From Candidatus Thalassarchaeum betae (GTDB lineage Archaea > Thermoplasmatota > Poseidoniia > Poseidoniales > Thalassarchaeaceae): DNA of 64,000 nt. The stretch spans positions 1 to 64,000 of the forward strand of contig PSPG01000003.1 of assembly GCA_003193925.1 (NCBI GenBank), given 5' to 3'. The notes under the pieces are model-generated. The model was not told the origin of the DNA. It searched no databases and saw only the letters and a program-made list of their open reading frames with translations. This document shows, piece after piece, positions 35,062 through 54,797 of this stretch (within the stretch, counting starts at the first letter, position 1; each line of letters begins with the position of its first letter). A program made the position numbers and the translations under genes.

Positions 35062-37125
35062 GTGAGTAGTGTGATTGAGAACATCCAGGAGATTGGAGTG
35101 GGCACAGCATTAGTCGGACTGCTGATTGCATTCGTGCTGTACAAGAAAATCAACAAGACCGAAATCAGCAATCCGATCGTCGCAGACATCACTCAGCAGA
35201 TTCAGGACGGAGCTATGACCTTCCTGAGGGCCGAATACAGGTACCTAGCCATCTTCATCGCAATTGTGGCTGCGGCGCTTTACGCCAACCCGAGCACCGA
35301 GCCGGAGACCGCTGTCGCGTTCCTCGCTGGCGCCGCGGCCAGCGTTGCCGCTGGATTCAGCGGTATGCGCGCGGCTACCAGCGCCAATGGGCGCACCGCG
35401 ATGGCCGCAGCCGAAGGCGGGCAGCCTGCCGCGCTGGCCGTGGCCTACAACGGTGGGGCTGTGATGGGCCTGTCCGTCGGTGGCCTCGGACTGCTAGGAA
35501 TCTCCGTGATGGCGATGTGGCTGGGCACCGGAGACGCCATCCAGAACGTCGCTGGCTTCGGGATGGGGGCTTCGTCCATCGCGCTGTTCGCGCGCGTGGG
35601 CGGGGGTATCTTCACCAAGGCGGCCGACGTCGGTGCCGACCTAGTTGGCAAGGTCGAGGTTGGAATCCCTGAGGATGATCCCCGCAACCCCGGTGTCATC
35701 GCCGACAACGTCGGTGACAACGTCGGTGACGTCGCAGGAATGGGCGCTGACATCTTCGAGTCCTTCGTCGGCTCGATCATCGCCGCTATGATCATCGCGC
35801 AGGCCTCGGGCATGCACGAGCACTACGTCCTCCTGCCGATCTTCCTCGGCTTCGTCGGGTACGCTGCGAGCATCATCGGCATCTTCAGCATGGAGCTGAT
35901 GAAGGGCGGCGATGCCGCTGCGGCCCTACGAAACACCACCTTCATCGGCGCTGGACTGTTCTGGGTCGCTGGCTGGTTCGGAATCGGTGAAATCGGGCTA
36001 GAGACCGGCACTGACCCGATGATTGCCGTGATTATCGGCAGCATAGTCGGTATCCTGATTGGACTCGTGACCGAGTACTACACGGGAATCGAGGACGTCC
36101 TCGGTGTCTCGACCAGGGCAATCCCGCACATCGCCGAGATGTCCAAGACCGGTCCTGCTACCAACGCCATAGCCGGCCTCTCGGTCGGGATGCAGTCGAC
36201 CTTCATCCCCATCCTCCTCATCTCCCTCGGCATCTTCGGCGCCAACCACTACATGGGTGGCGGCGATCCCGGCCTCTATGGAATCGCAATGGCCGCCATG
36301 GGCATGCTCGCGACCGTCGGCGTCACGATGACTGTAGACGCCTACGGGCCCGTGGCAGACAACGCCGGAGGGATCTCGGAGATGAGCAAGCTCGGCTCGG
36401 ACGTCCGCGAAATCACCGACGGACTCGACAGCATCGGCAACACCACTGCCGCCATCGGCAAGGGATTCGCAATCGGCTCGGCCGCTCTGACCGCTCTGGC
36501 CCTGTTCGCCGCCTTCAAGACCTCGAGCGGCCTCACGGCCGCTGACCTCAGCCTGACCGAGCCGATAGTTGTAATCGGGCTACTGATCGGTGGCTCGCTG
36601 CCGTTCGTCATCGCAGCGATGACGATGACCAGCGTCGGAAAGGCAGCCGGTGAGATGGTCAACGAGATTCGTCGCCAGTTCCGCGAGATCGACGGCCTGC
36701 TGGAGGGCAGAGAGGGCGTCAAACCGGACAGCGCCCGGTGCGTCGAGATCTCGACCCAGGCCGCGCTCCGCGAGATGGTGGCCCCGGGACTGACAGCGAT
36801 TGCTGCTCCTGTAATCGTCGGAACAGTACTAGGCGCAGCAGCCCTAGGCGGGCTTCTGGCTGGGGCCCTCGTGACCGGTGTACTGATGGCGCTCTTCATG
36901 GCCAACGCCGGCGGCGCTTGGGACAACGCGAAGAAGGCCATCGAACAGGGTCGCATCGAGGGTGCCGCGAAGGGCGATGCTTCTCACGATGCGGCGATCA
37001 TCGGCGACACTATCGGCGACCCGTTCAAGGACACCAGCGGGCCTTCGCTGAACATCCTGATCAAGCTGATGTCGATCGTCGCGGTCGTGATAGCCCCAGG
37101 GCTGACCCTCACAGGAATGCTCTGA
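35062..37125 (+). CDS. hppA: Membrane-bound pyrophosphatase, K+-dependent (probably Na+-translocating)
   Basis: [31 protein letters not shown] (Ala = K+-dependent), [10 protein letters not shown]; TTATAAG at 35029-35035. Confidence 0.95.
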
Positions 37126-37153: not shown

Positions 37154-38134
37154 ATGACTGACGGCAGGGACGGCTTACTCATGCGCGCGGCGCTGAGTAT
37201 GGCCCTGTCGGTCCTGCTGATGGCCACCGCGCTATCCGGCTGCACGAGCATCAGCGGTATCGTCGGGGGCTCTGATTCCGTCGAAGTCCCAGTTTGGGAG
37301 GTCGGCGATTGGTGGCTGTACACCTTCTCGACTCCAGACTACACCGACGACACGGCCCGACTGGTCGTCGCCTCCGTCAGCGAGGAGGACAACTCCTCCT
37401 ACATGCTTGCCATCTCGAGTCTGAGCGAGGCTCGCAGGCACGCGGTGCTGAATCACAACCCGTTCCTCGGCAGGATGACCCATGAGGACCTGAGCGCGTA
37501 CGAGAACGGCGTTGCCCGGACTGTGATGGACTTCCCATTGGATGAGGACAAGACATGGGAATTCACGCTGTTCTCCACCGAATGGAGCTCCAGTGTCAGG
37601 GGCGTCTCCGGGAACTCGGTGACCATCGGCGCTTTCGCGGATGACGGCTCCCAACTCGAATACGTCTACGACGGGGACGTCGGCTTCTTCTCGGCCTTCT
37701 TCTGGACCGACGCCTCCGGTGTCGAGCAGATGCGGATGATGCTCGCCGACAGCGGCGAAGGGCATACTGGCGACGTCTACTTCGTCCGCGGCGGCGACCT
37801 GTACTCTGACGAGTGGGAGGACACCGGGCCGGATATCGAGATCCGTGACACCTTCTTCGTCGGTGACCATCCCTCAGACGGCGAGTGGGACGAGATGATC
37901 TACTTCCTCGACGCCGAGTGCGGCGGGGGCTCCTCCAGCATCACCCTGACACTGCGGGACCATGCCTCGCTCTCCGCCCTCGAGAGGATCTGGGGACCGG
38001 GCGCCAGCGAGAGCGGCACTCTCGGCACCATCCCCTACCCCAGTGAGGAGTACACGCTGACTCTGACTTTCACCGGAAACACGTACCTGCGGCTCATGAT
38101 AGCAGGCGGGATAACCAGTTCTTGGAGCCTCTAG
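37154..38134 (+). CDS. Lipoprotein-like secreted hypothetical protein
   Basis: Signal peptide with an ALSGC lipobox; acidic, beta-rich sequence with VPVWEVGDWWLY. Confidence 0.7.
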   Translation: MTDGRDGLLMRAALSMALSVLLMATALSGCTSISGIVGGSDSVEVPVWEVGDWWLYTFSTPDYTDDTARLVVASVSEEDNSSYMLAISSLSEARRHAVLNHNPFLGRMTHEDLSAYENGVARTVMDFPLDEDKTWEFTLFSTEWSSSVRGVSGNSVTIGAFADDGSQLEYVYDGDVGFFSAFFWTDASGVEQMRMMLADSGEGHTGDVYFVRGGDLYSDEWEDTGPDIEIRDTFFVGDHPSDGEWDEMIYFLDAECGGGSSSITLTLRDHASLSALERIWGPGASESGTLGTIPYPSEEYTLTLTFTGNTYLRLMIAGGITSSWSL

Positions 38135-38397
38135 AGGTAATCGAGCAGGTGGTCCGAGCCACCGACGAACACGGGCTCCTCGCCCCTGAGGTCGAACAAG
38201 ATCGGAACCGTGCGGTGCTTGGTCTCAGCGACTACGGCCTCCCTCAGACCCTCGTGACGATCGAGGTTGACCTCCGTGTAACTGAGGCCGTGCGCCTCCA
38301 GCGTCCTCGTAGCGAGAGTGCAGTACGGGCAGACAGTCTGACTGAAGAACAGGAAGTCCGTATCTGCGGACTCAAGGTACTCACGTACTCGTGACAA
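38131..38397 (-). CDS. Glutaredoxin
   Basis: CPYC, RTVP, FVGGSD; TTG start preceded by GAGGAG. Confidence 0.85.
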   Translation of the reverse strand: MSRVREYLESADTDFLFFSQTVCPYCTLATRTLEAHGLSYTEVNLDRHEGLREAVVAETKHRTVPILFDLRGEEPVFVGGSDHLLDYL

Positions 38398-41300
38398 CGG
38401 CCTCGTCCTCCTCGTACCATGCCTCCGGCCGCTCTCCGAAGTCGCCATCGAACTCGTCCTCGCCATCACCGAAGCGGCCCTCGAGGACCCTGTCGACCTC
38501 ATCGGGATCGATGAACCATAGCAGTATCACCGTGAACAGGGTTAGCGCTGCTCCTATGTACAGCGAGGTGGTGTAGTCGAACCTCTGTATCATCTCGCCT
38601 GCGAACAGGTAGGCGAACACCGCCGAGAGGTTGAACATCGACATGTAGGCGGTGAACTGGGTCCCGCCGGCCTTGCTGAAGGTCAGCCTCATCGCGACAG
38701 CTATGATGCAGATCCAAGCGATGCCGTTGACGATGGAGCGGGCGCAAAGGTACGTGGTCATCACCGCAGTATTCGTCCAGTAGTCCGAGAGAAGCGCCAT
38801 TCCGGCGTTTGCCAAGGCTAGGAATGTGAAGCCGACCATAGCGACCTCCCTGACGCCAAACTTGTCCCCGATTATGCCTCCGATGATCTGTCCGAGCATC
38901 ATGAAGGCGATGACGATGCCACCCATGGTGACGTTGTACTTCGTCTGCGACCAGCTGGCCTCGTTGATGAAGATGTCAACCACTATCGGGTCGGTGAAGA
39001 GGTATAGTTCGGCCAGCAGGCACAGGAAGATGAGCAGGAAGGAAGAGCGGGTGGAGAAACCCTGGACGATGTAGTAGGCGGTACTGGAGACGTTCCTCTT
39101 CGACGATCTCGACATGAAGAAGAACGGATTGGGGACATCCGGTAGGGATACACCGAGCCACTCTGCGATGAGGAGTAGGGCGGTCAGGGCGAAACTGACC
39201 TTAGTGAACAGGAGGAACGGGCCTCCGATTGCGCCGTACGTCGCGTTGGTCGAAACTAGGTGGAGGATAGCGAACGCACCGCCGATGAGCAGGGCCACTA
39301 TGCTCACCCAAAGCAGTGCCGCGGGGAGGCTGACATTGTCCCGATACAGGTTGGTGGCTACCCATCTCGCCCTGTTGAAACGGGGGTCCTCGTCCCCATC
39401 CCAAGGCAGTGCGATCTCGGCCTCTGGATCTTCCTCCGACTCCTCCTCCTGGGTCCACCAGAGGTCCTCCTGGCCTTCCTCTGGCTTGCTCCAAGGGAAC
39501 AGCCTGTCCCCGGGCCTCTCGCGCAGGAACAGCGGCATCAACATGATGAGAAGCAGCACAGGCAGTTGGACCATGATCGCTGACTTGATGCCGAAGGGGA
39601 CGACCAGCATCCCGAGGACCGCCCCTCCGAATATGATGCCGCCGCGCTTGGCGGCGAACATGAAGCCGTTCGCCTTGGCGACCTCGTGGGGCTCTAGCAC
39701 ATCGACGGCGAGAGCGTCTACGCTGACGTCCTGCAAGGACGAGAACAGGTTGTGGACGAACAGCAGTATGGTAACGAGTCCGATTGAGGCGTTGAGGTCG
39801 GGCACGAAGAGCAGGGTGGATAGGGAGACCACCATCCCGGTCTGGGCGAATAGGATCCACGGGCGCCTGATTCCGTATGCTGGGAATCGAATTAGGTCAA
39901 TCATGGGGCCCCAGATGAACTTGAACGTCCAAGGCAGGGCGATAGTCGCGAACAGTATGGCGATCTGCTCGGGCGAGGCCCCGTTGTCGACGAGGTAGGC
40001 GACGAAGGCCACGTAGGTGAACCCGGACGGCAGTCCCTGGGCGACGTACAGCACGCACAGAGAGACGAAGCGCCTCATCGTGCTCTCTGTGAGCGAATTG
40101 CCTTCTTTCCATGATCGCCGGCCTGCTCTGAGAACTTCCGGGATGCGTGCCGGGCTGTAGGCCCTGATGTCGAACTCTCCGTCTTCGCCGTCTGAGGATG
40201 AGAGGGCGGAGAGGAACTTCCGGTCCCAGCGCTCATTGATCATGATGTAACCAAGCAAGGCCAAGATCATCACGAATGGAATGAAGAAGACGTAGGAGCC
40301 AATAGAAACCAAGCCGACTGCGGCGCCAACGGCCGACATCTCATCGATGAGGATGACCCTGCGGGCATCTACCGGGGAGATGCTGTCATCGGACATGACC
40401 AGCCTGGCGTAGATGGTGGTGTTGCCCGACTGCTCGTGCGGGTCGAGCTTGATGCGCCAACTTGCCCAGTCCCCGTTCTTGGACAGGTCGGCAGCCCCCT
40501 GCCACTCCCCCCCTCCAACCTTTACCTCAACGAGGCCGGTTCCGGGTGCGGCACCTGATGCAGTCCCGGCGATGTAGCTCTCGTTGCCGATCTCCTGCAG
40601 CGTGACGACGTCCATCGAGACGTTTAGCGAGCGGTCTATGCTGCCAGCCGCCTCGACGAAGGCCACCGGGTCGGCCTGACCGTAACCGAACTCGTTGTCA
40701 GGTCGAGATTCGAGCAGGCTGCAGTCGTTGAATCCGGGGTCGTCCAGCAATGCGATCTCCCGCTCTATCGAGTGGGCCCCGATGATGTCCTTGAACTCGG
40801 TCGGGGTCATGTCCGGATTGGCCTGCATCATCAGCGCGGCTATTCCTGCCATCAGCGGTGTGGCCATGCTGGTGCCGGACTTGCTGGTGTAGCCGTCCTT
40901 AGTGGCTGCATCGGGGGCCATGATGTTCGAGCCTATCGTGGCGACATCTGGCTTCACTCGCAAATCGGAGGTGTAGCCCCTGCTGCTGTAAATGGCGAGG
41001 CTGAGGTCCTTGTCCAGGCTAGCCACCGTAACGGGCAGTCGGGCGTCGCCCGGGCTGTCGATGGTGTTGCAGCCTGCGAGGGTGGCACCGCCGAACTCGT
41101 TGCCCGCGGACAGCGTGGTGATGATGCCGGCCTCGACCACCATGTCCATCTGGCGGCTCCAGGCAGAGTTGCCGTCGTTGTCGACGTGGATCTCGAACTG
41201 CTGCTCGCCGAGCGAGGAGGTGAGGATGTCGATGCCATGACCACCATCCCACTGACGATCCTTGTTGTCGATAGCCCACTGGGCACCCTGCATGATGTCC

Positions 41301-42205
41301 TCGATGTCGCCGTCGCAGCACGACAGGATGTTGATCAGGAATGCTCCCGGTGCTGCTCCGATGTAGCGTAGCCCGGTGCTGGGGTCGGTCTGACCTCCTC
41401 CCGTTCCAGCAGCGATGCCGGCAACATGGCTGCCATGGTCACTGGAGTCGTAGGACTCAGCCGGATCTTGCTCCGCGTCGGTTATCACGGCGTCGAAGAA
41501 GGCGATGATCTTCGGGTCACAGTCGGCTGGTATTGGGTCGGGGTTGGGGTCTAGTGGATCAGGTGGGTCATCGAGGCAGGTGAACGGGTCGTCGTCCATG
41601 TCGTTGAGGCCCTCATGGTCACCGCGAATCCCGGTGTCTAGGATCGCGATCACCGAGCCGGTGCCATCGAGGCCGAGTTCGGTCCAGACCTGGTCGACCC
41701 CTAGGGTCGGGACGGCTTCGTGCATGTTCGGCTCGGCCAGGCCGAGGTCCTCGACCATCACGACCCCGGGAAGGGCGCGGACGCCTTTGGGGTCGAGGAG
41801 CGCTGCGAAGGGGACCGTGGCAGCGAACAGGTCGAGGTACTTGGCCCGGAACGTGACCTCGGCGCCAAGCCGCTCGAGGACCCTGACGTCGGCGTCGGTA
41901 GGATGGTGGTCGTAGTCGACGAACACCCTGGCGCTCCCGGCCGGTGCTCGGCGCCACCAGTCCTGCTGGACGTCAGCCGGCTGCTCGAGCAGCCACTCGA
42001 GCCTGTCATCCAGTTGGTTGGCGTCCTTGTCGCGGCTCCAGTAGAGCCACCAGTAGGCATGGATGTCGGATTCCACCGAGGCACTCCAGTTGCCGTCTGC
42101 GTCGAATCCGCCGCGCCCGTCCTCGGCCATTATGGTCGATGAGGCGAGTGGCAGCAGGAACAGCAGGACGACTGCTGAGGCCAACGCTGCACGCCGTCCT
42201 GCCAT
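38381..42205 (-). CDS. Fusion of a secreted S8 subtilisin-family peptidase and an AmpG-like MFS transporter
   Basis: Signal peptide; ILDTG, HGSHVAG, SAGN and SGTSMATP triad motifs; a linker TM helix; then LYVAQGLP, PWTFKFIWGP, RRPWI, QDVSVDALA and TQFTAYMS. Confidence 0.9.
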   Translation of the reverse strand: MAGRRAALASAVVLLFLLPLASSTIMAEDGRGGFDADGNWSASVESDIHAYWWLYWSRDKDANQLDDRLEWLLEQPADVQQDWWRRAPAGSARVFVDYDHHPTDADVRVLERLGAEVTFRAKYLDLFAATVPFAALLDPKGVRALPGVVMVEDLGLAEPNMHEAVPTLGVDQVWTELGLDGTGSVIAILDTGIRGDHEGLNDMDDDPFTCLDDPPDPLDPNPDPIPADCDPKIIAFFDAVITDAEQDPAESYDSSDHGSHVAGIAAGTGGGQTDPSTGLRYIGAAPGAFLINILSCCDGDIEDIMQGAQWAIDNKDRQWDGGHGIDILTSSLGEQQFEIHVDNDGNSAWSRQMDMVVEAGIITTLSAGNEFGGATLAGCNTIDSPGDARLPVTVASLDKDLSLAIYSSRGYTSDLRVKPDVATIGSNIMAPDAATKDGYTSKSGTSMATPLMAGIAALMMQANPDMTPTEFKDIIGAHSIEREIALLDDPGFNDCSLLESRPDNEFGYGQADPVAFVEAAGSIDRSLNVSMDVVTLQEIGNESYIAGTASGAAPGTGLVEVKVGGGEWQGAADLSKNGDWASWRIKLDPHEQSGNTTIYARLVMSDDSISPVDARRVILIDEMSAVGAAVGLVSIGSYVFFIPFVMILALLGYIMINERWDRKFLSALSSSDGEDGEFDIRAYSPARIPEVLRAGRRSWKEGNSLTESTMRRFVSLCVLYVAQGLPSGFTYVAFVAYLVDNGASPEQIAILFATIALPWTFKFIWGPMIDLIRFPAYGIRRPWILFAQTGMVVSLSTLLFVPDLNASIGLVTILLFVHNLFSSLQDVSVDALAVDVLEPHEVAKANGFMFAAKRGGIIFGGAVLGMLVVPFGIKSAIMVQLPVLLLIMLMPLFLRERPGDRLFPWSKPEEGQEDLWWTQEEESEEDPEAEIALPWDGDEDPRFNRARWVATNLYRDNVSLPAALLWVSIVALLIGGAFAILHLVSTNATYGAIGGPFLLFTKVSFALTALLLIAEWLGVSLPDVPNPFFFMSRSSKRNVSSTAYYIVQGFSTRSSFLLIFLCLLAELYLFTDPIVVDIFINEASWSQTKYNVTMGGIVIAFMMLGQIIGGIIGDKFGVREVAMVGFTFLALANAGMALLSDYWTNTAVMTTYLCARSIVNGIAWICIIAVAMRLTFSKAGGTQFTAYMSMFNLSAVFAYLFAGEMIQRFDYTTSLYIGAALTLFTVILLWFIDPDEVDRVLEGRFGDGEDEFDGDFGERPEAWYEEDEAVVTST

Positions 42206-42255
42206 GGGCAGGACGAAAGTGGGGTGGTGTTTGAGACTTAGGTCGTCATCAGTCG

Positions 42256-43125
42256 TCAACTGACCTTCATTCCCTGATTGTCGTAGTCCCACTCGATGAC
42301 TTCCCAGCCGGCCTCCTCGACCGCGGAAACCGCTGTACTGACGCCCGTCGGGGAGCATAGCAGGCCCACTGAGCCACCGCCGCCTGCGCCCAAAGCCTTC
42401 CAAGCCACCGCCGAGCCCGCCTCCAGAAGGGGGTCAATCACGCCTCGAAACGGGTCGTGGATCGCCGGATCCAGCATGTCGACTCCCTTGCAGACCTCAT
42501 TGAGGGCATGGACCACGAGTTCGCGCCGATCGCGTTGAAGCCCCTCGGCCATGGTTCGTGCGGCCCCTCTGATGAGATGCAGGCCGCCGATCACCGACTC
42601 GTCGCCCTGATCGTAGCGCTCCCAGACCCCGGAGTGCATGTCTCCTGAGGTGTGCTCGATTCCCGTATAGGCGATGACGAAGTGCTTGCGCAGCCAGTTC
42701 CTCGCCGAGCGCATCGGCTCGAACGGCATCTCCTCGACCTCGTCGCCGAGGAAGAGCAGGTGGTTGAATCCACCATGTGCGGCGGCCCACTGGTCCTGCC
42801 TGCCGCCGCGGTTCTCGAGCAGGGCCTCGAACTGGAAGGCGAGCTCGGCGATGTCCTCAGGGCTCTTGTCGCCACCGGCGATGGTCGCAATCAGTCCGAC
42901 GTTCATCGCCCCGCTCGTCCCGAGGCCCGATCCCGTCGGCATGTCGCTGCTGTACTCGACCCGTATCCGCCCGTCCGCGTCCTTCTCCATGATGCTCCGG
43001 ATGTATCGATTGATGGCGAAGTTGACGACCTCGCCCCCGAAATCGCCGCTGTACGGCTGGACGTCGGTCCAGCCTCCTGCGAGGTCGACGCGTACGGGAA
43101 CCACCACTTCCACGCGTTCCGCCAT
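42256..43125 (-). CDS. GHMP family sugar kinase (HddA/fucokinase-like)
   Basis: PVRVDLAGGWTD, PTGSGLGTSG, GRQDQ, GAGGGG. Confidence 0.85.
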   Translation of the reverse strand: MAERVEVVVPVRVDLAGGWTDVQPYSGDFGGEVVNFAINRYIRSIMEKDADGRIRVEYSSDMPTGSGLGTSGAMNVGLIATIAGGDKSPEDIAELAFQFEALLENRGGRQDQWAAAHGGFNHLLFLGDEVEEMPFEPMRSARNWLRKHFVIAYTGIEHTSGDMHSGVWERYDQGDESVIGGLHLIRGAARTMAEGLQRDRRELVVHALNEVCKGVDMLDPAIHDPFRGVIDPLLEAGSAVAWKALGAGGGGSVGLLCSPTGVSTAVSAVEEAGWEVIEWDYDNQGMKVS

Positions 43126-43207
43126 CGAACACAGCAAATCTCCGACCCATGAGAAGGATTCGGTCTGCGACCGAAAATAACGGGTAGGTAAGGCCCCTCC
43201 GCCCTAC

Positions 43208-43921
43208 ATGGCCTCCGGTGTGGATCGAGCCATCGCCGCATTCGTCGCCGGTGAGCCAGTCATGGTGTTCGACTCAGCCTTCAGGGAGCGGGAGACCGAC
43301 CTGCTGTGGCCCGCGGACGCCGCGACGCCGGAGGTCATGCGGACTCTGCGCAAAGACTGCGGCGGCCTGCTGTTCCTCGCTATCGGAAACGAGATCGGCG
43401 AGCTCTTCGGGCTGCCATGGCTGCAGGACATCCATTCGCACCCTGCGCTGGTCAAGGAGAACCCGGTGCTCGCCGATCTCGTGACCAACGACCTGCAGTA
43501 CGACACGCGCTCTGCATTCACAGTCTCACTGAACCACAGGGACACGTACACCGGAATCACCGACCGCGACCGCGCCCTGACCACCCGCAGATTCGGCGAA
43601 CTGACCGGTGAACTGCTCGCCAGTGGGGCGGACGGTGAGGCTGCGCGAGCCGCACTCGGCGCCGAGTTTCGCACCCCCGGGCACATCCCAGTGTGCCGAG
43701 AGTCCCGGCAGGGGCTCAGGACGCGACAGGGGCACACCGAGCTGGCCGTCTCGATAGCGCGGCTCTCCGGGCACTCGCCGTGCACCATCGGCGCCGAAAT
43801 GCTGCAGCCGGACGGCGACGGCGCTCTGGCTGTCGAGGATGCCCGCGAATACGCCCGCAAGCGTGGCATACCGATGATCACCGGGGCAGACATACTCGAG
43901 GCGCTTGGGATAGACGAATGA
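43208..43921 (+). CDS. ribB: 3,4-dihydroxy-2-butanone-4-phosphate synthase (archaeal type)
   Basis: DSAFRERETD, YTGITDRDR, FRTPGH, RQGHTE. Confidence 0.93.
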   Translation: MASGVDRAIAAFVAGEPVMVFDSAFRERETDLLWPADAATPEVMRTLRKDCGGLLFLAIGNEIGELFGLPWLQDIHSHPALVKENPVLADLVTNDLQYDTRSAFTVSLNHRDTYTGITDRDRALTTRRFGELTGELLASGADGEAARAALGAEFRTPGHIPVCRESRQGLRTRQGHTELAVSIARLSGHSPCTIGAEMLQPDGDGALAVEDAREYARKRGIPMITGADILEALGIDE

Positions 43922-43964
43922 GGCGAAGGATTGAGGCAGGTCTGCGTTTCGGGGGTGTGAGAGC

Positions 43965-44423
43965 ATGGTGCGCGTGATGGCCGTCGGCATTTTCGATCTC
44001 CTTCACGCCGGGCACCTGCACTACCTCGAGCAGGCCAAGTCGCTGGGCGACGAACTGGTCGTCGTGGTTGCTCACGATGACACGGTCCGCAATCAGAAGC
44101 ACGAGCCCATAACGGGCCAGGAGTTGCGACGCAGGATGGTTGCCGGGCTGAAGCCGGTGGACGAGGCCATCGTGGGTAACCCCCCTTCAGTCCCGATCTT
44201 CGACATCCTCGATGTCGTCAAGCCCGACAAAATCGCTCTGGGCTACGACCAGAAGCACTCGATCGAAGCCGTCCGGGCAGGTCTGGAGAGACAGGGCCAT
44301 GGCCACATCGAGGTCGTAAGGGTAGAAGGGCTCTCGGACGACTTGGACGGGACTCGCAAGATCATCTCAAAGATCCTTGACCTCTGGACCGGGACCGAAG
44401 ACGGCCCCTACGAGGAGGATTGA
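43965..44423 (+). CDS. ribL: FAD synthetase (archaeal cytidyltransferase-like)
   Basis: GIFDLLHAGH and IALGYDQ; located within the riboflavin operon. Confidence 0.82.
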   Translation: MVRVMAVGIFDLLHAGHLHYLEQAKSLGDELVVVVAHDDTVRNQKHEPITGQELRRRMVAGLKPVDEAIVGNPPSVPIFDILDVVKPDKIALGYDQKHSIEAVRAGLERQGHGHIEVVRVEGLSDDLDGTRKIISKILDLWTGTEDGPYEED

Positions 44424-44424
44424 G

Positions 44425-45030
44425 ATGTTCACCGGTATCGTACAGGGCACCGGAGAGGTGACTTCGATCTCGGATGGCGGCACAGTGCGTCGGTTCTCCA
44501 TTGAGATGAGTGGTCTGAGCGATGAGCTCGGGATGGGTGCGAGCGTATCCGTCGATGGCGTCTGCCTGACTGTATCCGGAATGGAAGGGAGCGTCGTCGA
44601 CTTCGATGCGATTCCCGAGACGCTGGAGCGCTCGACTCTCGGGGGCCTGTGTGTCGGTGATGCGGTGAACCTCGAGCGCGCCCTGCGCATGGGCGATGAG
44701 CTGGGAGGGCACGTCCTGTCCGGGCATGTAATGGCCACAGCGGAGGTGCTCGGCCGTAGCGAGGTCGGCGAGGGCGTCGACATGGAGATCTCCGTCTCGT
44801 CGGACATCAGGCCGTTTGTCATGGAGAAGGGCTACATCGCCGTCGACGGTATCAGCCTCACCGTCGGCCGGGTCAGGGCCGAGTCGTTCGACGTCCACCT
44901 GATTCCCGAGACCCTCGAGAGGACGACCATCGGCAGCAAGTCTGAGAGCAGCCTTGTAAACATCGAGGTCGACCCAATGACCCAAGCTGTGGTCGAGACC
45001 ATCTCACGGATGATGGAGGCACGCCAGTGA
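44425..45030 (+). CDS. ribE: Riboflavin synthase (bacterial-type alpha chain)
   Basis: MFTGIV N-terminus, DGVCLTV, VNLERAL, GGHVLSGH, DGISLTV. Confidence 0.93.
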   Translation: MFTGIVQGTGEVTSISDGGTVRRFSIEMSGLSDELGMGASVSVDGVCLTVSGMEGSVVDFDAIPETLERSTLGGLCVGDAVNLERALRMGDELGGHVLSGHVMATAEVLGRSEVGEGVDMEISVSSDIRPFVMEKGYIAVDGISLTVGRVRAESFDVHLIPETLERTTIGSKSESSLVNIEVDPMTQAVVETISRMMEARQ

Positions 45031-53059: not shown

Positions 53060-54205
53060 ATGGTCGACTTCAGCCTGTCAGAGGAGCAGCGTATGCTCCA
53101 GGAGGCGGCGCGCGAGTTTGCTGCTGCGGAAGTCCAGCCGCACGCTGAGAAGTGGGACCGTGAGAGCACCTTCCCGCGAGAGGCGATACGCAAGGCCAAC
53201 GAACTCGGTCTGCTCACCGTCAAGATTCCCGAGGAGTACGGCGGCTACGGCATGGGCTCCTTCGAGGAGGTTCTGATATGCGAGGAAATCGGATGGGGCG
53301 ACCCTGGGTTCGCCACCGCATCTGGCAGCACGATGCTGGCTTCCTACCCACTCATCACAGGCGGCACTGAGGACCAGAAGCAGCGCTACCTGTCCAAGGT
53401 CGCCGATGGCTGCATCGCAGCCTACTGTGTGACGGAACCCGGTGCCGGTAGCGATGTGCAGTCGATTCGGACGCAAGCCGTCAGGGACGGTGACGACTAT
53501 GTCGTCACCGGCAGCAAGATGTGGATCACCGGAGCCGGTCACGCTGACTGGTTCTTCGTTCTGGCATACACCGACAGGGAAGCTGGGTACAGGGGAATGA
53601 GCGGTTTCATCGTCGACGCCGACAGCGCCGGCGTCGTGCTCGGCAAGAAGGAGGAGAACATGGGCCAGCGCTGCTCCGACACGCGCGCGGTCGACTTCAA
53701 CGACGTTCGCGTGCCGGCGGAGAACCTCATCGGCGGCGAGGAGAACGGCGGCTGGATGAATGCGATGAGGGCGTTCGACCTCTCGAGGCCCACGATATCC
53801 GCGCACGCCGTCGGCAATGCCAGGGGCGCCATGGAAGAGGCCCTGAGGTACGCCAATGAGCGCAGCACCTTCGGAAAGCCGATCTACAGGCACCAAGCGA
53901 TCTCGTTCATGATCGCTGACATGGCGACCAAGATCGAAGCTGCCAGGCTTCTGACGTGGTGCGCGGCGAAGAAGGCCGACGCCGGCGAGCGCAACACACT
54001 CGAAGCCGCCCACGCCAAGCGCTTCTCCGCCGACATGGCGATGGAGGTGACCACCGACGCGGTGCAGGTGTTCGGCGGATACGGCTACTCCGAGGAGTAT
54101 CCCGTGGCCCGCCGCATGCGAGGTGCCAAGGTGGTTCAGATCTTCGAGGGTTCGAGCCAGATTCAGAGGATGATCATCGGGCGAGAGCTGCTCCGGGGCA
54201 TGTGA
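53060..54205 (+). CDS. Acyl-CoA dehydrogenase (medium-chain-like)
   Basis: YCVTEPGAGSD, KMWIT, QVFGGYGY, IFEG. Confidence 0.95.
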   Translation: MVDFSLSEEQRMLQEAAREFAAAEVQPHAEKWDRESTFPREAIRKANELGLLTVKIPEEYGGYGMGSFEEVLICEEIGWGDPGFATASGSTMLASYPLITGGTEDQKQRYLSKVADGCIAAYCVTEPGAGSDVQSIRTQAVRDGDDYVVTGSKMWITGAGHADWFFVLAYTDREAGYRGMSGFIVDADSAGVVLGKKEENMGQRCSDTRAVDFNDVRVPAENLIGGEENGGWMNAMRAFDLSRPTISAHAVGNARGAMEEALRYANERSTFGKPIYRHQAISFMIADMATKIEAARLLTWCAAKKADAGERNTLEAAHAKRFSADMAMEVTTDAVQVFGGYGYSEEYPVARRMRGAKVVQIFEGSSQIQRMIIGRELLRGM

Positions 54206-54215
54206 TGGTGGTGAG

Positions 54216-54797
54216 ATGGCCGAAGACGCCGTTGCTATCGGCTGCGTCGTCCTAGCGGCGGGTGGCAGCGGGCGCCTCGGGCAGCCCAAGGCGCTGATCG
54301 AGGTGGGTCAAGGCACCCTGATCCAATGGCTGGTCGGAAGGCTCGAGAGCCACGGCCTAGCGCCAGTGGTCGTGACGCGGGGGGAGTTGCTGGAGGATGT
54401 GGCGGCATCCGTCGCTTGCCGGGTAATCGTCAACCCTCGTCCGGAGGATGGGCGGACCGGGACCCTCCAAGTGGGCATCGCCCACCTCGATAGAGAGATC
54501 GGTCCCGGGTACGGCCTGCTGGTGGTGCCCGTAGACCGCCCGGGCTTCTCGGACTCGACTCTCCGGAGTCTCATCTCCTCGGAGCGCACCGCCTGCCCGA
54601 CGAAGGACGGGAGGGGAGCGCATCCGATCGTCATTTTAGCCGCCGAAGTCGGGAGGATTCGAAGCGCTGCGCCCGACGCTCCGCTACGCGAACTGATAGA
54701 ACCTTTCCGACTAGAGGTCGAGGACCCCCACCTGCACCTCAACGTAGATCTGCCAGGAGATTTGATCGGTCTGGATGATTCGTTGGTGAATCTGTGA
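54216..54797 (+). CDS. MocA/MobA-like nucleotidyltransferase (probable molybdenum cofactor cytidylyltransferase)
   Basis: LAAGGSGRLG..K, PVDRP, GAHP, NVDLP; near xdhC and the molybdoenzyme genes. Confidence 0.78.
   Translation: MAEDAVAIGCVVLAAGGSGRLGQPKALIEVGQGTLIQWLVGRLESHGLAPVVVTRGELLEDVAASVACRVIVNPRPEDGRTGTLQVGIAHLDREIGPGYGLLVVPVDRPGFSDSTLRSLISSERTACPTKDGRGAHPIVILAAEVGRIRSAAPDAPLRELIEPFRLEVEDPHLHLNVDLPGDLIGLDDSLVNL

Follow-up and report, generated by a model that had tools for sequence, protein, structure and literature searches.

How a free-living cell without a periplasm retains the products of its extracellular enzymes is a question raised by a single gene in a 64,000-nucleotide stretch of Candidatus Thalassarchaeum betae DNA (contig PSPG01000003.1, positions 1 to 64,000; hereafter the window, meaning this whole stretch). 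The uncultured Marine Group II (MGII) archaea count among the most abundant surface-ocean heterotrophs, and protein and other high-molecular-weight organic matter are believed to sustain them. The gene lies on the minus strand, with an ATG start at 42205 and a stop codon at 38381-38383, and encodes in one open reading frame (ORF) of 1274 amino acids a signal peptide, an S8 subtilase, a beta-rich domain, a linker transmembrane segment (TM0) and an AmpG/PAT-like major facilitator superfamily (MFS) transporter with a central two-helix hairpin, in that order. We propose, at odds slightly better than even, that this protein acts as a membrane-tethered cut-and-import module for peptides; a protease covalently joined to an importer would be a concrete and testable answer to the question of product retention. 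The parts of the protein are as follows.

38381-42205, minus strand: whole ORF, S8 subtilase, beta domain, TM0 and AmpG/PAT-like MFS (1274 amino acids plus stop)
42125-42205, minus strand: signal peptide, residues ~1-27 (hydropathy peak at 8-26 after MAGRR; sequence inspection)
41696-42124, minus strand: N-terminal propeptide-like region, residues ~28-170, upstream of the Pfam S8 match (putative role, by the architecture of Tk-SP, discussed below)
40679-41665, minus strand: Peptidase_S8 catalytic domain, residues 181-509, with D190, H257, N369 and S446 (Pfam, alignment)
40340-40675, minus strand: beta-rich domain, residues 511-622, with TM0 directly after it (strands 491-580 in the AlphaFold2 (AF2) model; add 37 for protein numbering)
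40235-40339, minus strand: TM0, linker transmembrane segment, residues 623-657 (hydropathy, AF2 model)
40070-40234, minus strand: cytoplasmic linker, residues 658-712 (55 residues, K/R-rich)
39515-40069, minus strand: MFS N-bundle, residues 713-897, with K762, D770, R780, R781, D826 and D830 (Pfam, alignments)
39158-39514, minus strand: inter-bundle insert of the MFS, an acidic loop (898-957) followed by two extra helices (958-1016) (hydropathy, AF2)
38495-39076, minus strand: MFS C-bundle, residues 1044-1237, carrying the E1066/R1156 pair that characterises S8-fused forms (Pfam, AF2, alignment)
38384-38494, minus strand: acidic cytoplasmic C-terminal tail, residues 1238-1274 (14 D/E in 37 residues)

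Both enzymatic and transport modules are recognized by their family profiles. Peptidase_S8 (PF00082) matched residues 181-509 along its entire length (profile positions 1-288 of 288; E 4.9e-42, 144.6 bits against a cut-off of 21.8), and the residues D190, H257 and S446, together with the oxyanion residue N369, were invariant in all 29 S8-bearing rows of our alignment (27 fused and two stand-alone). MFS_1 (PF07690) matched in two stretches from residue 716 (E 8.2e-29, 101 bits against a cut-off of 33.4), while the match of CBM_6 to the beta domain was weak (E 0.024) and under the cut-off. The ectodomain is strongly acidic, with 100 D/E and 37 K/R in 590 residues. Hydropathy and the AF2 model give the helix order as TM0, basic linker, six helices, acidic loop, two extra helices (~960-985 and ~988-1016) and six further helices, that is, 15 predicted membrane spans with the N-terminus outside and the C-terminus inside; the MFS part of the full-length model (residues 38-1237, from a 68-row alignment) had a predicted local confidence (pLDDT) of 85-97. 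An earlier note, made from the sequence alone, had described a single ORF of about 1270 residues with signal peptide, S8 triad, beta domain, transmembrane segment and MFS, in which the one linker helix leaves the protease outside and the MFS N-terminus inside, and both descriptions were borne out. The longest variant of the fusion frame starts at TTG 42403.

Sequence identity is unevenly distributed along the protein. Among 24 fused relatives, identity to the window protein was 91% in the S8 catalytic domain, 84% in the beta domain, 79-80% in the MFS halves and 76% in the propeptide-like region, and it fell to 62% in TM0 and to 39% in both the cytoplasmic linker and the hairpin, a pattern of constraint on both modules and drift in the connectors. 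TM0 is also found in all other ectodomain forms of the transporter, and the two-helix insert is missing from the family f3, M28 and cupredoxin forms introduced below.

A frame of this kind could in principle result from a chimeric assembly, or from a missed stop or frameshift joining two genes, but this explanation is already refuted and we give it practically no weight. Across the 21 genomes of the window genus, the window's own included, a full-length stop-free frame was present in 10 (the other nine being 74-81% identical to the window), eight held pieces broken at contig ends and three had no orthologue match. The same stop-free frame recurs in 58 genomes of the family and in 19 genomes of another family. 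In addition, 115 of the best 120 metagenome proteins retrieved with the MFS part, from several sources, carried both PF00082 and PF07690, some of them under the Joint Genome Institute (JGI) name 'subtilisin family serine protease/MFS family permease'; the remaining five were 717-814 amino acids long and lay on contigs of 2.3-4.4 kb. Contigs from two independent DNA runs, neither of them flagged as a possible source of the window, span 38100-42240 and 38508-42500 with 15 and 14 substitutions, respectively, and no gaps, and the 18 in-gene substitutions listed, which leave aside 10 further differences, comprised 11 synonymous and seven missense changes and no stops. The sole gap in this evidence is that no RNA contig from the metatranscriptome libraries X15 and X16 bridges the junction (40070-40340): the contigs of these libraries, which may stem from DNA carry-over, lie on 40668-42112 in the protease half, apart from one 34-nucleotide piece at 39416-39449 in the acidic loop. 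The view of the earlier note that the fusion is not accidental thus agrees with its conservation in relatives, its coherent topology and the lack of a stop or frameshift in independent contigs.

The fusion is a widespread gene of this MGIIb family and of one further lineage, and does not belong to the core genes of MGII as a whole. The transporter was found (E<=1e-45) in 90 of the 141 sampled genomes of the Thalassarchaeaceae, the window's family (f1). Frames of at least 1171 amino acids occurred in 58 of these 90, belonging to genera g1, g4, g11, g13, g15, g17 and g18; other frames measured 840-950 amino acids (15 genomes; g4 and g11), 873-888 (four; g5) and 658-661 (two; g16), and 11 genomes held fragments only. 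Genera g2, g3, g12 and g14 had no transporter match at the same threshold. The S8 content of the long frames was verified by a motif check in 18 loci, two of them also by Pfam, and in many more through one continuous alignment, so that S8 plus MFS was confirmed in representatives of every long-frame genus. In a class-wide sample of 301 genomes, a fused form of 1168-1210 amino acids was present in 19 genomes of genus g29 in family f4, a lineage that, from the layout of GTDB, is probably MGIII. The architecture search suggested by the earlier note found the combination of Peptidase_S8 and MFS recurrent in both families. Family f3, with 141 genomes in that sample, had no match to the fused query at E<=1e-150, and in the 14 f3 genomes inspected the protease and transporter matches lay in separate frames. 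Our literature searches turned up no paper describing an S8-MFS fusion; in a transcriptome study of these archaea 'subtilase' figures among the highly transcribed genes, and the part of it available mentions no fusion, nor did the portion of its supplementary tables searched contain a row with S8 plus MFS, although the full table may hold one (PMC9723583).

The identity of the transporter bears on what the module could import. AmpG, the anhydromuropeptide permease of E. coli and others (PAT family, TC 2.A.1.25; PDB 9c3f, 9j9z, 8zbb and 8zgz), imports muropeptides, and the archaeal host has no murein. The best sequence matches in the PDB were AmpG (E 1.3e-8) and SLC33A1 (1.5e-7), and the four best Foldseek matches were AmpG structures, with E from 1e-13 to 3.6e-9, both for the full-length model and for that of a relative with another ectodomain (type A, see below); other MFS transporters followed, among them peptide importers of the POT family. 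The full-length model had at least 456 PDB matches at E<=0.001, and nearly all of the 50 listed were MFS transporters, with three S8 proteases. The window protein also shares with AmpG a TQF motif and six N-bundle residues, K762, D770, R780, R781, D826 and D830 (K62, D70, R80, R81, D125 and D129 of AmpG), which were invariant in all 66 MFS rows. This likeness would suit a true AmpG importing peptidoglycan fragments, with the protease trimming cell-wall debris, and some orthologues of AmpG likewise have two helices inserted between their bundles, according to the accessible part of a structural study (PMC11568325).

Such a scavenger of muropeptides or glycopeptides, a use of bacterial cell-wall debris that the earlier note had raised as a possibility, is nevertheless very improbable. 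The NCBIfam model of the AmpG family, TIGR00901, aligned end to end with residues 710-1231 (E 2.7e-38), but its 131.7 bits fall far short of the cut-off of 350; the scores of ten other family members were 93-139 bits, and the equivalogs NF008867 and NF008238 gave 64 and 44 bits against cut-offs of 656 and 756. When the AmpG residues named in the accessible part of PMC11568325 were mapped through the PDB sequence alignment, six of 11 cavity or relay residues of E. coli AmpG were kept; Y59 is replaced by W, K132 by A, the sugar-contacting Y152 by A or S, K235 by E and the Glu of transmembrane helix 10 (TM10) by R, and D238 falls in a gap, with the C-bundle cluster weakly aligned and the numbering of the TM10 Glu uncertain. 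A pair peculiar to the S8-fused forms lies in the C-bundle, with E1066 in 26 of 27 rows and R1156 in 25 of 27. Matches to AnmK (PF03702), Amidase_2/AmpD (PF01510) and GH3/NagZ (PF00933) numbered zero in the 91.8%-complete genome, against positive results in the control genomes. Besides, S8 subtilases are not known to cleave stem peptides containing D-amino acids. On the grounds of the sub-cut-off scores and the replaced residues, the transporter is best placed by sequence in an uncharacterised branch of the AmpG/PAT clan, and would not be an AmpG.

Two further profiles touch on the direction of transport. BT1 (PF03092; residues 723-900, 50.3 bits against a cut-off of 22) and Acatn (PF13000; residues 713-836, 27.8 bits against 23.7) both exceeded their cut-offs, covering only the first 177 of 432 and the first 146 of 546 profile positions, which correspond to the shared N-bundle. 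Together with the PDB match to SLC33A1, the Acatn match could be read as a sign of an exporter that moves a cytoplasmic compound outward, as SLC33A1 does with acetyl-CoA, for use or processing by the ectodomain, and the variety of ectodomains described below, a redox protein among them, would suit such a supply role. We regard this as very improbable, given that neither a subtilisin nor an M28 peptidase has an obvious exported co-substrate and that the closest solved relatives, by sequence and by fold, are importers.

What sits outside the membrane on this transporter is exchangeable. Residues 601-1274, searched against 1.84 billion representatives, gave 4150 relatives, and the ectodomains were surveyed by Pfam on 15 relatives with long extensions and in the fetched loci. 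The N-terminal position before a TM0-like helix holds either S8, Peptidase_M28, a cupredoxin or one of two beta-rich domains to which we refer as type A and type B. The combination of Peptidase_M28 and MFS occurs in the metagenome protein P0127 and in genome G110 (g5), where it lies beside the same glutaredoxin and lipoprotein genes as in the window. Types A and B had no Pfam match, and in the ESM Atlas they matched only unnamed Thermoplasmatota clusters. The type-A ectodomain is all-beta in its AF2 model (pLDDT 45-80), the fold search with the whole type-A transporter model returned MFS matches only, and all 60 proteins found with this ectodomain carry the MFS; type B has an apparent lipobox. 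Homology of type A to the S8 beta domain or to the whole S8 ectodomain was tried and rejected (hhalign probabilities of 0.2% and 8%, respectively), and the exchange of ectodomains is therefore non-homologous in this case. The S8, type-A and M28 forms occupy one locus, with the order lipoprotein, glutaredoxin, transporter, (GHMP kinase), ribB. What is new here is a transporter gene at a fixed locus with interchangeable outer domains.

Protease and transporter are not always joined, and the fused and split forms replace each other. In 10 of the 15 genomes with an 840-950-residue transporter (the type-A ectodomain was sequence-verified in three of these 15), a stand-alone, membrane-anchored S8 orthologue was present, with 68-79% identity and 663-726 amino acids; the other five genomes, 80-89% complete, had no stand-alone S8 match at E<=1e-80. 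Fused genomes of the same two genera (g4 and g11) had the fused copy only, in eight of eight cases, and six M28 or cupredoxin genomes had no orthologous S8 at E<=1e-80. The site of the stand-alone gene can be located in the window for genus g11.

54206-54215, no strand: empty site, the 10 nucleotides between the genes that flank the stand-alone S8 in split g11 genomes (genes 53060-54205 and 54216-54797 abut in the window)

In G053 and G041 (g11) the stand-alone S8 lies ~11-13 kb from the transporter, between the orthologues of these two window genes, and shorter stretches of G093 and G129 (g11) show one of the flanks; a second S8 paralogue is present at that site in G041, G093 and G129. The g4 stand-alone S8 loci (L014, L037 and L038) had no flanking gene matching the window.

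The two halves of the protein seem to have partly separate histories. In a quick S8 tree the stand-alone genes nested among the fused ones, and the 18 fused rows as one group, named after the trees had been seen, were rejected (approximately unbiased (AU) test, p 7.5e-5), whereas in an equally quick MFS tree a single fused group was not rejected (p 0.12). Pairwise identities differ between the halves: G067 and G045, both of g15, share 84% in S8 and 51% in MFS; G141 (g15) and G064 (g11) share 75% and 84%, respectively; and in the MFS half alone L024 (G102, g11) and L002 (G019, g1) are 86.8% identical, against 51.3% for L027 and L031, both of g15. The halves look discordant with each other and with the genus labels, as in a gene mosaic, and our reading of these sequences is that at least two changes of state occurred, with recombination near the junction and two deep MFS lineages probably exchanged between genera.

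The protease is also joined to a second kind of transporter. In G165 (f4, g28) an orthologous S8 lies in a 1065-residue frame (L115:1209-4403) with a different MFS (MFS_1/MFS_1_like), which retrieves the MFS of the window with a BLASTP E of 0.18, while the AmpG-like MFS of that genome (L114) is separate and has, ahead of the transporter helices, only a signal-like N-terminus, ~25 residues and TM0. G216 has a frame of the same length and the metagenome clusters P0331-P0333 share the architecture. By sequence, this is an independent second fusion of the orthologous protease, with an unrelated MFS.

These observations allow a mechanism to be outlined. The signal peptide would export the N-terminal part, which would fold outside the cell as an active subtilisin with its beta domain, and the N-terminal propeptide would be shed, by analogy with Tk-SP. 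The mature protease would then be held by its C-terminus, with few residues between the beta domain and TM0, which would cross the membrane once to the cytoplasmic side and there lead into a presumably proton-coupled MFS importer of the AmpG/PAT type. At the cell surface the protease could cut protein, whether dissolved or particulate, and the permease next to it could import the short peptides before they diffuse into the sea water. No other order of the parts would allow an N-terminal propeptide to be lost with the mature enzyme still held at its C-terminus, and since the beta domain runs almost directly into TM0, the enzyme should lie within a few nanometres of the outer mouth of the permease. 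We infer import rather than export, a peptide substrate and a gain of capture from proximity. Comparison with relatives favours a functional link between the two halves, through the M28 variant, the mutual replacement of fused and split forms and the second MFS partner. Combined with the conservation of both modules, this makes peptide cut-and-import the best reading of these sequences. Of the cut-and-import machine proposed by the earlier note, the functional link is supported on this comparative ground and the suggested source in bacterial cell-wall debris is weakened.

Several points weigh against a cut-and-import function. In the full-length AF2 model the S8 domain is mostly below pLDDT 50, which makes the model uninformative on the position of the protease and on whether its active site faces the transporter, and the RNA contigs leave the junction unbridged, as mentioned above. 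A copper domain of the plastocyanin/halocyanin type (Copper-bind, E ~1e-13) is joined through TM0 to the same MFS in P0130 and in L030:1812-3785 (G046, g16), two beta-rich ectodomains without assignment (types A and B) are found on the same transporter in relatives, and the AmpG-like MFS of G165 in f4 has almost no ectodomain; the MFS therefore does not need a tethered enzyme. Moreover, the genome already holds one binding protein of the Opp/Dpp type and one OPT transporter, and cleavage near TM0 could release the protease and undo the tether. Finally, the stand-alone protease has a single C-terminal membrane helix of its own, so that anchoring alone could explain the membrane segment. A redox protein on a transporter has, in itself, no obvious rationale.

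Some of these points would be equally expected if the MFS served the protease merely as an anchor or platform, the two halves being independent, with a surface protease engaged, for instance, in maturation or turnover of the cell's own envelope proteins and the MFS carrying an unrelated solute. An orthologue already anchored by one helix, cupredoxin and beta domains in the same position, and halves with histories as different as those of G067 and G045 are all compatible with that view. We nonetheless consider it unlikely, because an anchor of 12-14 helices is costly where one helix suffices, and because two peptidase families on this transporter, the independent fusion of the same S8 to a second MFS family and the exclusion between fused and split forms (eight of eight fused and 10 of 15 split-form genomes) are more easily explained by a functional link.

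The tethered cut-and-import module may be compared with known systems. The window protein differs from AmpG by a further helix on its N-terminal side, TM0, and by a protease ectodomain of 620 residues. For the protease half, the closest solved relative is Tk-SP of Thermococcus kodakarensis (PDB 3afg and 9ues; E 9.1e-33; Foldseek ranks 21 and 41), in which a subtilisin domain is likewise combined with an N-propeptide and a C-terminal beta domain; Tk-SP is a soluble, secreted enzyme with neither a membrane segment nor a transporter. Peptide importers of the POT/PTR family (e.g., PepTSt) are MFS proteins among the next best fold matches, and bacterial POTs carry a two-helix hairpin between the bundles; however, POT (PF00854) had no match on the window protein or in the genome. 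The nearest published parallel is AmpG1 of Acinetobacter baumannii, which recruits the lytic transglycosylase Slt by means of an Ig-like domain in the periplasm (Kd ~6 nM), an arrangement described, in the part of the paper available, as 'substrate channeling' into the permease (PMC13507758). As far as that part shows, both systems couple an AmpG-type MFS physically to an extracytoplasmic enzyme that makes, or in the window protein would make, its substrate, but AmpG1 holds its glycan-cleaving enzyme non-covalently, by a domain set into the middle of the permease (PMC13507758), whereas in the window protein the enzyme is a protease attached covalently at the N-terminus through the extra helix.

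A broader and more tentative possibility, to which we assign clearly less than an even chance, is that the AmpG-like MFS with TM0 serves the Poseidoniia as a general platform for uptake, whose outer cassettes (S8, M28, cupredoxin and the two beta domains) would be swapped by recombination at one locus. The S8 cassette would have moved more than once between stand-alone and fused states and captured a second, unrelated MFS, selection would repeatedly favour the hard-wiring of proteolysis to a secondary transporter, and the type-A domain might dock a separate protease in the split forms as the AmpG1 domain docks Slt. If true, the 'selfish' uptake of bacteria would have a counterpart in archaea that works without a periplasm. 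Ready controls for experiments exist among the natural variants, which comprise split as well as fused forms, ectodomains of the S8, M28 and non-enzymatic kinds, two deep lineages of the MFS and a second MFS partner.

Distant members of the MFS family (31-38% identity) carry C-terminal domains after an extra hydrophobic segment, namely 3-keto-disaccharide-hydrolase, FG-GAP, or GH63-like plus GH65C plus F5/8-type-C domains (P0146, P0206 and P0219), and perhaps represent the same tethered-enzyme design for glycans, in bacteria; they may be bacterial because the nearest MFS-only homologues lie in genomes of marine Verrucomicrobiota and Planctomycetota. The finding would also define an uncharacterised branch of the AmpG/PAT clan that these archaea have in common with marine Verrucomicrobiota and Planctomycetota, where it appears fused to glycoside-hydrolase-like domains. 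The nearest non-archaeal MFS-only homologues were found in metagenome-assembled genomes of marine Verrucomicrobiota, Planctomycetota and Gammaproteobacteria, with 38-50% identity over residues ~700-1241, which hints at transfer between domains of life. Two matches labelled Neomarinimicrobiota and Nitrospina (74-86% identity) look like mis-binned archaeal contigs.

The gene context of the fusion is conserved in part. One neighbour overlaps its 3' end.

38131-38502, minus strand: glutaredoxin gene overlapping the 3' end of the fusion (likely start TTG 38397)

The overlap claimed by the earlier note was confirmed, and its extent depends on the start codon, being 122 nucleotides from ATG 38502 and 17 from TTG 38397; the latter has a GGAGG-like stretch upstream, and conservation with other genera starts there. 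The glutaredoxin gene adjoins the transporter in every examined Thalassarchaeaceae locus reaching that side. Between the transporter and ribB, the GHMP kinase gene is missing in G041 and G048. In the window, the genes at 42256-45030 are presumably a GHMP-type kinase, ribB, an FAD synthase-like and a riboflavin synthase-like gene, and that at 35062-37125 (plus strand) a membrane pyrophosphatase, as judged from sequence. A predicted lipoprotein of 326 amino acids with an LSGC motif, encoded at 37154-38134 on the plus strand, recurs beside the glutaredoxin-transporter pair throughout the family.

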